Positions 4,999-27,482 of a stretch of 61,730 nucleotides of DNA are shown here, in pieces. The number at the start of each line of letters is the position of its first letter. The first letter of the stretch is position 1. Where the stretch lies: positions 1 to 61,730 of the forward strand of contig CALRBA010000003.1 of assembly GCA_943353835.1 (NCBI GenBank), written 5' to 3'. The translations under genes and the position numbers were made by a program. Below the pieces are notes generated by a model. It made no database searches. It saw nothing but the letters and a program-made list of their open reading frames with translations, and had not been told where the DNA came from. The DNA comes from Candidatus Nomurabacteria bacterium (lineage in GTDB: Bacteria; Patescibacteriota; Minisyncoccia; Phycocordibacterales; Phycocordibacteraceae).

Positions 4999-5803
4999 CG
5001 AGCGGCTCGCAGTGCGGCGCCGTACTCGGCGCCGAATGGGTCTCATATTTTTTTTAATCCTGCTCCTGCTCCTGCTTACTGCAACTATTTACGGGCTTCG
5101 GCAGAGTGCTGCGCGCATTTCACACATAGAAGTTATTAGTGTGGACGCATCGCTTTCTGGATATGCGACAAGCAGGATGCAAGGAAACTATTTCGGTATT
5201 ATTCCACGTGATTCCATATTTTTCTTCCCCGAAGAGAGCATTCGCGCAGACATACTTTCATCTCATAATGACATTGTCGCAGTTTCAATATTAAGAAACG
5301 GCTTTACTGGAATTTTAATAAAAGCGGATTACCGCGTTCCTGTCGCGCGTTGGTGTGGGGACGCAACAAGGTTCAACCTTGAGGATTCGGATTTAAGGTT
5401 GAACCTTGTTGCGGACTGTTATTTTTTTGATACTGACGGATTAATATATTCGGCGGCTACAACAACGCAACCGATAAATTCTTTTGTTGTTTATAATGCG
5501 TTACCCGTCGACGATGACCCGATTGGTTCAACTCTCCCATTTGCCAAAGATTTTCCCGCAATTTTTGACTTTGCACGGCAATTATCAACCCTTGGTTCGC
5601 AGGTAGTTTCTGTCGCCATTCATGACGGAGAAGTGGACAACCGTCTCGCGAGTGGTACGCGTGTCACCTATGTTCTTGGTCGCGAACAAGTCGCCTTCAC
5701 CGCACTTGTTTCTGCTCGCAACAACTTCAATCTAGCTGACGGCTCGGTAGACTATGTTGACCTGCGCTTTGACGGTAAAGTGTATGTGAAGCCGAAGAAG
5801 TGA
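4964..5803 (+). CDS. FtsQ/DivIB-like bitopic membrane protein
   Basis: Basic N-terminus, one TM helix, POTRA-like segment, C-terminal DYVDLRFDGKVYVK typical of FtsQ; start uncertain. Confidence 0.65.
   Translation: MLERALSGERSNERLAVRRRTRRRMGLIFFLILLLLLLTATIYGLRQSAARISHIEVISVDASLSGYATSRMQGNYFGIIPRDSIFFFPEESIRADILSSHNDIVAVSILRNGFTGILIKADYRVPVARWCGDATRFNLEDSDLRLNLVADCYFFDTDGLIYSAATTTQPINSFVVYNALPVDDDPIGSTLPFAKDFPAIFDFARQLSTLGSQVVSVAIHDGEVDNRLASGTRVTYVLGREQVAFTALVSARNNFNLADGSVDYVDLRFDGKVYVKPKK
5362..5413. repeat. AAGGT-N3-ACCTT palindromic element, copy 3, in frame in the FtsQ-like gene
   Basis: cgcaacaaggttcaacctt-gaggattcggattt-aaggttgaaccttgttgcg; encodes ATRFNLEDSDLRLNLVA. Confidence 0.92.
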
Positions 5804-8103: not shown

Positions 8104-8349
8104 GTGACCCACTACGTCTACATTCTCGAGTGCGCGGACACCTCGCTGTATGTGGGATGTACCAACAACATTGAGAGGCGATTGAAAGAACATAATCATT
8201 CAAAACAAGGGGCGCACTATACCAAGATCCGCCGGCCAGTTAAGCTACGATATTCGGAGACTTTCTTACATCTGAAGGACGCTCGTGCTCGTGAGGCTGT
8301 CTTGAAGCGACTTCCTCGCGAAAAGAAGCGAGCGTTCATCGTTCCTTAA
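8104..8349 (+). CDS. Small GIY-YIG nuclease (YhbQ/UPF0213-like)
   Basis: HYVYILEC..SLYVGCTNNIERRLKEHN..GAHYTK..AREAVLK. Confidence 0.9.
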   Translation: MTHYVYILECADTSLYVGCTNNIERRLKEHNHSKQGAHYTKIRRPVKLRYSETFLHLKDARAREAVLKRLPREKKRAFIVP

Positions 8350-25983: not shown

Positions 25984-26946
25984 ATGCAAACCGTTGTTGG
26001 GGTACTGCGAGGCGGGCCTAGTCGCGAGCACGAGGTATCGCTTAAGTCCGGCGCCGCTATCCTTGCGAATCTGTCCGAGGAGCGTTACACCGCGCGCGAC
26101 ATTTATATAGATAGAAATGGAGTCTGGCATGACCGAGGCAGAGCAACTTCGCCTGAACGTATATTGCGTCAGACCGACGTTGTTCTAATTGGTCTGCACG
26201 GTGAATATGGTGAGGATGGAGAAGTACAAAAGCTTCTTGAGCGTTTCGGCGTCCCATATGCCGGCGCCGACTCATTTGGTTCCTATCTCGCGATGCATAA
26301 AATTATGTCCAAAGCGCGGGCGAAGGAGGAAGGACTACTCACACCAGAATCGCGTTTCATTGAACGCGTCGAAGACAGCGAGACTGTGGCAAGTGAGGTG
26401 GTCCGTGCCTTTCATCAGCCGGTCGTGGTGAAGCCAGTCGGTTGGGGCTCCTCGGTCGGTGTTTCTATAGTGGGAGGATACGCACCGGTGCTCTCTGCAG
26501 TTAAAAAACTTTTCTCTGATGGCGCGCCGAGCGTCATTGTTGAAGAATATATTCGTGGAAAGGAGGCGACAGTTGGAGTGGTGGAAGGACTGCGTGGCGA
26601 GAAATTCTACTCGCTACCGCCAGTTGAAATCATTCCTCCTAACGGCGATTTTTTTAATTACACAAATAAGTATGATGGGACTACCCAGGAGATTGTCCCG
26701 GGCAATTTCTCCCGCGTCGTTTCTGAAGAGCTCCAGAGGGTGACGAAGGTAATGCATCGTGCGCTTGGCCTGCGCCACTACTCGCGGAGCGATTTTATTG
26801 TTGCGCCAAAGGGTATTTATTATTTGGAGACCAATACATTACCTGGTCTCACGCATGAATCGCTCCTGCCGAAGTCCCTCGCCGCAGTCGGCGTCAGCTT
26901 CCGCGACTTCCTCACGCATCTGGTCAATCTCGCGCTCTCGCGCTAA
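25984..26946 (+). CDS. ddl: D-alanine--D-alanine ligase
   Basis: GGPSREHEVSLKSG, LHGEYGEDG, VVKP..GSSVG, YLETNTLPG. Confidence 0.96.
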   Translation: MQTVVGVLRGGPSREHEVSLKSGAAILANLSEERYTARDIYIDRNGVWHDRGRATSPERILRQTDVVLIGLHGEYGEDGEVQKLLERFGVPYAGADSFGSYLAMHKIMSKARAKEEGLLTPESRFIERVEDSETVASEVVRAFHQPVVVKPVGWGSSVGVSIVGGYAPVLSAVKKLFSDGAPSVIVEEYIRGKEATVGVVEGLRGEKFYSLPPVEIIPPNGDFFNYTNKYDGTTQEIVPGNFSRVVSEELQRVTKVMHRALGLRHYSRSDFIVAPKGIYYLETNTLPGLTHESLLPKSLAAVGVSFRDFLTHLVNLALSR

Positions 26947-26956
26947 AGTATTCAGA

Positions 26957-27044
26957 CGGGCCCATATGTAGGCATATGAGCCCTCGTTCGGAGAGAAAGA
27001 ATAATTGAAGACACTTATTATTTCTTCCTCTCTTCGGGCCCATA
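26957..27044 (+). mobile_element. 78-bp hairpin element flanked by a direct repeat of the tRNA-Ala(TGC) 5' end
   Basis: CGGGCCCATA at 26957-26966 and 27035-27044; internal stem-loop with TGAAGACAC loop. Confidence 0.65.
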
Positions 27045-27108
27045 GCTCAATTGGTAGAGCGCCTCATTTGCAATGAGGAGGTAGCCGGTTCGAAACCGGC
27101 TGGGTCCA
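27036..27108 (+). tRNA. tRNA-Ala(TGC)
   Basis: Complete cloverleaf, CCTCA-TTTGCAA-TGAGG, G3:U70. Confidence 0.96.
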
Positions 27109-27133
27109 CTCATATGATATTCTTCTTTAGTTC

Positions 27134-27330: not shown

Positions 27331-27482
27331 GGGCCATTAGCTCATCTGGTAAGCCCTTCAGGCTTTCTCCGTCGTCGCTCCGCTTAAATAAATGTGAAGA
27401 CGCATTTATTCAGCTACGCTTCTAGTAGTAGAGAGCGTCATTCGCATTGACGAGGTAAGCGGTTCAAGTCCGCTATGGTCCA
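27331..27482 (+). tRNA. tRNA-Ala(CGC) interrupted by a 79-nt D-loop insertion (27352-27430)
   Basis: Joining 27331-27351 to 27431-27482 gives a 73-nt tRNA collinear with tRNA-Ala(TGC); CGTCA-TTCGCAT-TGACG; G3:U70. Confidence 0.85.

Follow-up and report, generated by a model that had tools for sequence, protein, structure and literature searches.

Background

The insertion sequence IS608 inserts with its target on the 5' side of its left end, has last bases that resemble this target, carries subterminal hairpins and forms a single-strand circle, as set out in the portions of PMC6006769 and PMC5934647 drawn on here. According to the same portion of PMC5934647, an engineered 8-nt complement placed 3' of the left hairpin of IS608, where it pairs with the DNA upstream of the cut, steered insertion. 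The REP/BIME sequences that go with TnpA-REP (RAYT) are small, gene-less hairpins, restricted to particular lineages, present in multiple copies and sometimes in tandem. The attC cassettes of integrons act through a folded bottom strand, form tandem arrays and carry cargo. MITEs of the RUP, Correia and ERIC type are short, non-autonomous and structured, and they have terminal inverted repeats and a fixed target duplication.

Here we describe a 78-nt unit at the tRNA-Ala(TGC) gene of a Candidatus Nomurabacteria genome (G000 below), found in a window of 61,730 nt, by which we mean the whole stretch of DNA that was analysed. It is a gene-less hairpin element that sits after the eighth base of the tRNA gene and leaves the tRNA whole, and it belongs to a family of inserts without genes that occurs in Patescibacteria (Paceibacteria). 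New here are the evidence for a downstream copy of the target that is carried by the element, the recognition of one layout for inserts at tRNA starts, in D-loops, at stop codons and at TTAT sites, and a strand bias. By function we regard the element as a hairpin mini-element of the IS200/IS605-REP type; by test it is a member of none of these groups. Our literature search, made at title and abstract level and with subscription journals and supplements outside its scope, found no description of such an element, and there is no mention of OD1, GIY-YIG or duplication in the portion of PMC3733652 available to us.

Methods

Counts out of 116 refer to a parsed set of copies from 45 genomes. It was obtained from 123 matches in 100 loci, which are a part of all matches in the genus, and seven of the 123 were left out (two reverse overlaps, two cut copies and three that could not be parsed). 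Inserts of the D-loop type were selected by sequence pattern, and not for pairing, at 26 places in 24 of 222 genomes; leaving out four unparsed copies and three at tRNA starts gave 19 internal inserts, among which the end point is ambiguous in the rpsG stop-codon copies. The gene names ddl, rpsP, rnr, ruvB, rpsG and ruvC are those that we presume from the translations. Models of the element are designated R1, R2 and R3.

Results

The element at tRNA-Ala(TGC)

An exact word search placed CGGGCCCATA at positions 26957-26966 and 27035-27044, 78 bp apart, in agreement with the preliminary description of this locus, and found no further copy on either strand of the whole 533,899-base genome. A 9-mer with a copy 45-115 nt upstream occurred at 0.08% of 200,000 random genome positions. 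Since tRNA-Ala(TGC) starts at 27036 (ARAGORN; Rfam RF00005, 70.6 bits), the initial C of that second copy, at position -1, lies outside the tRNA. The near-inverted copy and the long stem reported between the two repeats were found as described. The features of the locus are the following.

25984-26946: upstream ORF, presumably ddl
26958-26965, plus strand: left 8-mer GGGCCCAT, now the left flank and presumably the original first 8 nt of tRNA-Ala(TGC)
26966-27043, plus strand: element proper, 78 nt, beginning at the A next to the cut and ending at the final T (covariance model R1, 92.9 bits; boundaries from family comparison)
26966-26975, plus strand: small left-end hairpin (loop 1, ATGTAGGCAT), the commonest loop-1 variant (17/116)
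26976-26983, plus strand: anti-8-mer ATGAGCCC, predicted guide, 7/8 complementary to the flank and to the element's own 3' 8-mer
26984-26989, plus strand: 5' linker TCGTTC, the best-conserved motif (81/112 distinct cores), its centre covarying with the 3' linker
26990-27028, plus strand: long hairpin 2 with TGAAGACAC loop; in the family the stem covaries and the loop sequence is variable
27029-27035, plus strand: 3' linker TCTCTTC (TCACTTC in the family)
27036-27043, plus strand: right 8-mer GGGCCCAT, which at present forms the 5' strand of the tRNA acceptor stem and is presumably element-borne
27036-27109, plus strand: intact tRNA-Ala(TGC) (ARAGORN, Rfam RF00005)
27331-27482, plus strand: tRNA-Ala(CGC) gene, split by a D-loop insert
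27351-27429, plus strand: this insert, a second family member of 79 nt in the D-loop (pattern match; R3, 37.9 bits)

The left 8-mer begins 11 nt past the stop of the upstream ORF (26946), and in relatives with an empty site the tRNA starts 12-14 nt past that stop. The tRNA stays whole because the element ends in a copy of the first eight bases of the tRNA; the element thereby restores its target, as had been suggested. Two hairpins form in the stretch 26958-27035, with a stability reached by 0 of 200 shuffles (z = -4.2; reverse strand, z = -5.4), and tRNA-Ala(TGC) is predicted to fold separately from this leader. When circularised in silico, the element (26966-27043) folds as a closed rod. The bodies closest to it stand at tRNA-Ala(GGC) (92%) and tRNA-Trp (91% and 86%).

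The TGAAGAC hairpin noted before in tRNA-Ala(CGC) is real. Its assignment to the same family is borne out by shared linkers and layout, and R3 scores both copies, both being near or in its training set. The split tRNA-Ala(CGC) gene is probably inactive.

A family of gene-less inserts

BLAST searches in 40 relatives and inspection of the loci revealed the same module before other tRNAs, the left and the inverted copies changing with the tRNA. The layout of the family runs from a target 8-mer ending in T through the cut, a small hairpin, the anti-8-mer, a linker, a long hairpin and a second linker to an 8-mer. Building a covariance model had been proposed at the outset; a model made from 17 copies has covarying stems and matched 63 of 100 genus genomes, with at most 14 matches per genome. 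Positive genomes numbered 17 of 149 in an order-level sample (R2), 24 of 149 in a class-level sample (R3) and 3 of 149 in a phylum-level sample (R3), one of these three belonging to the same family. Twenty-one exact-pattern matches are labelled Kaiserbacteria, Paceibacterota, Parcubacteria, Patescibacteria, Saccharibacteria or just 'bacterium'. Rfam gave no match to the element beyond chance level.

The 116 parsed copies are 74-106 nt long (median 81), and 96 of them are found at tRNA starts, involving 19 tRNA types. The 20 copies off scored tRNA starts comprise seven in a group I intron of the 23S rRNA gene (Rfam 30 bits, below threshold), nine where a 155-nt RNA upstream of ruvB begins, two between rpsP and rnr and two at unscored tRNAs. 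The cut T is the one invariant position, the target being otherwise variable in the genus; TTAT is present in 10 of 24 class-level flanks. Tandem arrays of the element exist. The TGAAGAC loop, thought at first to mark the family, occurs in 10 of 116 copies only, and the associated search pattern ATAA-N2-4-TGAAGAC-N2-4-TTAT fits none of the 116, the tRNA-Ala(TGC) copy included, and matches the D-loop copy only. G000 has four copies, at tRNA-Ala(TGC), tRNA-Lys(TTT) and tRNA-Thr(CGT) and as the D-loop insert. A TGAAGAC census of this genome returned the two window copies and nothing else assignable to the family, the Lys and Thr copies, which have other loops, being missed.

Several variants were observed. 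A 47-nt derivative before tRNA-Lys(CTT) (L048:986-1044) keeps loop 1, the anti-8-mer and both linkers and has lost hairpin 2. Members of a stop-codon subfamily are inserted after the T of TAA in rpsG and other genes, and the first bases of the element rebuild the stop (L333-L349 in genome G059, L172, L174, L176, L182, L183 and L186); about a dozen weak matches of this type occur in a single genome. D-loop copies lie in a 5' fragment of tRNA-Gln(CTG), 113-140 nt before an intact tRNA-Gln, at L167, L173, L175, L178, L181 and L189. At L160:1250-1750 (plus strand) the element is antisense in the anticodon loop of tRNA-Ile(TAT), with a full tRNA in loop 1 and a second copy in tandem.

The conserved 155-nt non-coding RNA before ruvB (G000:C1:14036-14191, minus strand) has a long irregular hairpin and no Rfam match; from its fold, it is possibly the 6S RNA of this lineage. 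The 23S rRNA gene of G000 contains two group I-like introns (G000:C1:71950-72600), the second of which has a hairpin at the site occupied by the element in relatives.

Empty and filled alleles

Comparison of alleles established, as had been anticipated, that other tRNAs carry the element and that empty alleles exist. The junctions of the D-loop insert share 3 nt only (GTA). Exactly 79 nt of D-loop insert are absent from the contigs of three runs from three other studies, three letters fitting either side; these contigs are about 97% alike (16 differences in 581 nt) and still carry the element at tRNA-Ala(TGC). Two of the three runs are also 93 nt shorter across the tRNA-Lys copy, a difference in length only and not an exact skip. 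The ddl-tRNA-Ala(TGC) junction is empty in genomes G024, G013 and G019, in which the tRNA starts where the left 8-mer lies here. The same junction holds an element in G000, G014 and G017, each time with another loop-1 type, which suggests separate insertions. The family is mobile, with recent gain or loss and with both empty and filled alleles.

Fold, covariation and strand

Two-sided change was found at 17 of 24 stem pairs of the 17-copy model (0 of 500 shuffles; slid controls far lower), counts that are inflated by kin. Both stems, that of the loop-1 hairpin and that of hairpin 2, covary, and in a rod model of the circularised unit 21 of 23 pairs do so. The pair that joins the two linkers switches from T-A to C-G in 17 of 80 sequences. 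By DNA energies, the fold of the non-transcribed strand is the more stable one in 94 of 116 copies, the kin among which are not independent. A.C exceeds G.T in hairpin 2 (88 vs 49, p = 0.001), and hairpin 1 has no significant excess (33 vs 26). This strand bias, together with the antisense L160 copy and its tRNA cargo, leads us to favour a DNA substrate over an RNA function.

Origin of the direct and inverted 8-mers

The left and right 8-mers are identical in 80 of the 116 copies and differ by at most one mismatch in 98. The anti-8-mer matches its own target at 5.68 of 8 positions, against 3.97 for shuffled pairs (maximum 4.35 in 2000), and is fully complementary in no more than 17 of 116. Because all three 8-mers mostly agree at tRNA starts, their agreement there fits a duplication as well as a carried end. 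The two outer 8-mers are the same in 73 of 96 tRNA copies versus none of the seven intron copies. Among the 19 internal inserts, the better pairing partner of the anti-8-mer is the element's own end in 14 and the flank in three, two being tied; the D-loop copy of the window is one of the three that favour the flank, and both of its pairings are weak. At the rpsP-rnr site the empty G000 allele equals the left 8-mer, and the right 8-mer is a tRNA-Lys-type start that is matched by the anti-8-mer; four more records of this case possibly overlap the genus draw. In class-level inserts (24 parsed of 28 loci) the anti-8-mer pairs at 6.96 of 8 positions with the element's own end and at 3.63 with the flank, the own end being better in 21 of 24 and the flank in none, a comparison that is biased because R3 scores the pairing of anti-8-mer and right copy. 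Flank and end share mainly the last T there, often within TTAT.

The off-tRNA and empty-site comparisons place the left boundary of the unit at the A next to the cut and the right one at its own final T. The downstream 8-mer is thus mostly carried by the element and is not a target duplication; for the tRNA-Ala(TGC) copy, where left and right are identical, the carried origin is taken from the family. The preliminary description had explained the direct copy by a duplication of the target upon insertion. This explanation is not upheld, since at sites with a different flank the inverted copy agrees mostly with the end of the element itself, which also argues against a hairpin copying of the target at insertion.

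Its further suggestion of a target-adapting element is partly supported. Bodies at least 90% alike stand at different loci in 23 of 45 pairs, all their 8-mer copies, the anti-8-mers included, being matched, and at the differing positions of tRNA sites the anti-8-mer follows the left flank 23 times, the right copy 36 times and neither 12 times. The 23 positions that follow the left flank and the matched 8-mers of alike bodies make some rewriting after insertion likely. The acceptor stem pairs better with the right than with the left copy in 22 of 23 differing cases, which drift fits as well as a carried end.

Candidate enzymes

The element is present in 47 of 55 Y1-positive and in 17 of 46 Y1-negative genomes, kinship being ignored. 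The 17 element-positive genomes without a Y1 match include G079 and G059, the latter 98% complete with 11 copies by R1 and 29 matches by R3, by which it is the richest genome. No Y1 gene was flanked by the element in the 31 Y1 loci examined. A weak copy with a long hairpin 2 (L230:2850-2945, minus strand) lies at the ruvC start codon, 1 kb from an IS200-like transposase gene. G000 has two RAYT-like Y1 genes (C5 36360-37044 and C5 near 5332-5592; open frames of 227 and 230 aa), which are flanked by AAGGT-NN-ACCTT palindromes unrelated to the element. The second of these genes is directly upstream of the RNase P RNA gene.

Clustering of 785 ORFs near the 123 matches yielded locus neighbours only and no linked enzyme, and Pfam assigned the 63 ORFs beside class-level copies to housekeeping genes and one LAGLIDADG. 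The GxxExxY nuclease was found in 0 of 101 genomes. Among 65 enzyme and viral loci, R3 gave a single strong match, next to tRNA-Gln, and three that were weak; of the latter, one within a Y1 coding sequence was judged to be due to chance. Long-cargo forms were absent from 356 loci in a scan that detects only 40 of 116 short controls. Three pattern matches on viral contigs had none of the family layout, and the circle junction, from final T to first A, was seen in none of the assembled contigs examined.

Discussion

Comparison with described systems

Like the IS200/IS605 elements IS608 and ISDra2, the element has hairpins near both ends, a target 5' of its left end and a target-like end of its own, and off-tRNA inserts and empty alleles show, at the level of the family, insertion 3' of the target without true duplication. 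Target choice by DNA pairing would be a further shared trait, as would the circle that is predicted for the element by analogy, and the natural anti-8-mer lies where the 8-nt guide was engineered into IS608 (PMC5934647, in the portion cited above). Unlike these elements it has no linked transposase and no 4-nt guide 5' of the hairpin foot. Its guide is 8 nt long, lies 3' of the left hairpin and varies between copies, only the cut T being invariant; the strand opposite to that of an IS608-like reading folds better, and the two ends pair into one rod.

With REP/BIME sequences it has in common all the features listed for them above, and RAYT-like Y1 genes exist in its host. It differs by its few copies per genome, by a defined insertion point with empty alleles and by the carried target copy; a REP-type tag (GTAG/GTGG or CGTC) stands at any of the four hairpin feet in only 10 of 116 copies, and none of the RAYT genes among the Y1 loci is flanked by the element. 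It resembles attC cassettes in the folded bottom strand, tandem arrays and cargo, and likewise in an outer hairpin arm that comes from the flank when integrated and from the unit's other end when circular. It has no R box (0/116; the feature is taken from the part of PMC7439510 cited here), no linked integrase and no attI, and its crossover is at a T and not between the G and TT of GTT. MITEs, which it resembles in small size, structure and lack of autonomy, differ by their terminal inverted repeats, which in the element amount to 1-3 nt in 110 of 116 copies, and by their fixed target duplication, which it lacks.

Proposed mechanism

The reading that we favour, with moderate confidence, is that of a mobile element which inserts after T8, likely brings the 8-mer itself, likely moves as a single-stranded DNA circle and depends on an enzyme acting in trans, most likely an HUH tyrosine transposase of the IS200/IS605/REP type. 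The IS608-like topology and the parallel with the engineered 8-nt guide speak for such a trans-acting HUH enzyme. Excision would join the final T to the first A and yield a closed rod of about 80 nt. The anti-8-mer would pair with the eight nucleotides that precede the target T, biasing site choice without being strictly needed. Copies would persist where the carried 8-mer rebuilds function, at the 5' ends of tRNAs and ncRNAs, and also where they are harmless, in an intron loop, at stop codons and in intergenic DNA. At tRNA starts the element would form a 5' leader that is predicted to be removable by RNase P, the RNA of which is present in the genome. The element would be retargeted one base at a time between tRNA starts that resemble each other, after which the three copies would be corrected locally; template-switch or fold-back copying may be a secondary process after insertion.

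Alternative explanations

We consider it unlikely that the 8-mers arise from a true 8-bp target duplication, with the inverted copy written from the target by fold-back synthesis or by later template-switch correction. Such a duplication would explain why left equals right in 80 of 116 copies, why the anti-8-mer matches its own target above the shuffled level (5.68 vs 3.97 of 8), why the three copies match one another in nearly identical bodies found at Lys and at Arg tRNAs, and why 23 positions of the anti-8-mer go with the left copy. It does not explain the D-loop copy, which shares 3 nt only at its junctions, the intergenic site, where the right 8-mer differs from the empty allele, the off-tRNA inserts in which the anti-8-mer follows the element's end (14/19 and 21/24), or the rarity of perfect complements (17/116). 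An integron-like route, by which the resident Xer-like or an IntI-like tyrosine recombinase would insert a circular cassette through its folded bottom strand, with minimal crossover homology and in tandem arrays, appears rather unlikely. The better fold of the bottom strand, the tandem arrays and the cargo in loop 1 are consistent with it, and the succession of stem, internal loop, stem with bulge and variable tip recalls attC as presented in that part of PMC7439510. Of 101 genomes, 92 have a tyrosine recombinase, G059 and G079 among them, but it is mostly single-copy with or without the element, no integrase is linked among the neighbouring ORFs, and an RYYYAAC/GTTRRRY box is found at 0 of 116 junctions.

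Quite improbable, in our view, is a small GIY-YIG nuclease that nicks or breaks the site, after which host repair would copy the hairpin element in. The window does hold an 88-aa stand-alone GIY-YIG gene (8110-8325, plus strand) 60 nt after tRNA-Gln(TTG), a copy lies nearby in one of 30 genus loci of this gene, and its count correlates with that of the element over 101 genomes (rho 0.46, uncorrected for kinship or assembly). However, the gene occurs in 95 of 101 genomes, element-free ones included, no element arms were detected in the 170/230-nt flanks of the 30 loci, and repair needs more homology than the 1-3 nt at off-tRNA sites. Eight of these 30 loci adjoin tRNA-Gln, several with a different GAAGAC-containing repeat between the tRNA and the gene. 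A host RNA device (a tRNA leader or processing signal) or a tiny self-splicing intron is very improbable. The 96 of 116 genus copies at tRNA starts are on the transcribed strand, and the pairing of flank and anti-8-mer resembles the P1 helix of group I introns. Against this, the element is patchy, being gained or lost among strains about 97% alike, and its sites also include stop codons, intergenic TTAT and, in antisense orientation, an anticodon loop. The better fold is that of the non-transcribed strand, and Rfam offers no match beyond chance. Group I introns have a U.G pair at the 5' splice site and a terminal G, whereas a G stands opposite T8 in 4 of 116 copies and the last base of the unit is T; a group I intron was rejected on these grounds. 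Mobility through an RNA copy and a reverse transcriptase seems scarcely credible. Reverse transcriptase ORFs, which we take to be DGR-like, lie close to two tRNA-Arg genes carrying the element (L067 and L069), and transcribed RNA genes are favoured as sites, but G000 has no reverse transcriptase despite its recent changes and the two are not associated (28/43 vs 36/58, p = 0.84).

Conclusions

Beyond the favoured reading of a carried 8-mer and a trans-acting HUH enzyme, we put forward tentatively, and with some doubt, that the family may be a new class, a closed-rod circle of about 80 nt with an 8-nt DNA guide and a replacement target, reprogramming itself among tRNA, ncRNA and stop-codon sites, with cargo in loop 1 and an enzyme of a new role. 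If true, this would be an insertion system of natural origin that is guided by DNA and repairs its own target. Should the anti-8-mer be a guide, the extended base-pair targeting known from engineered IS608 is already in use in nature, by a unit of some 80 nt, and the enzyme, if found, could give a very small programmable tool for DNA insertion. The family accounts for duplicated tRNA starts and apparent D-loop 'introns' in the annotation of Patescibacteria, and its insertions are strain-level markers. It shows that a selfish element can occupy essential tRNA genes of minimal genomes without killing the host, by bringing the missing start along.
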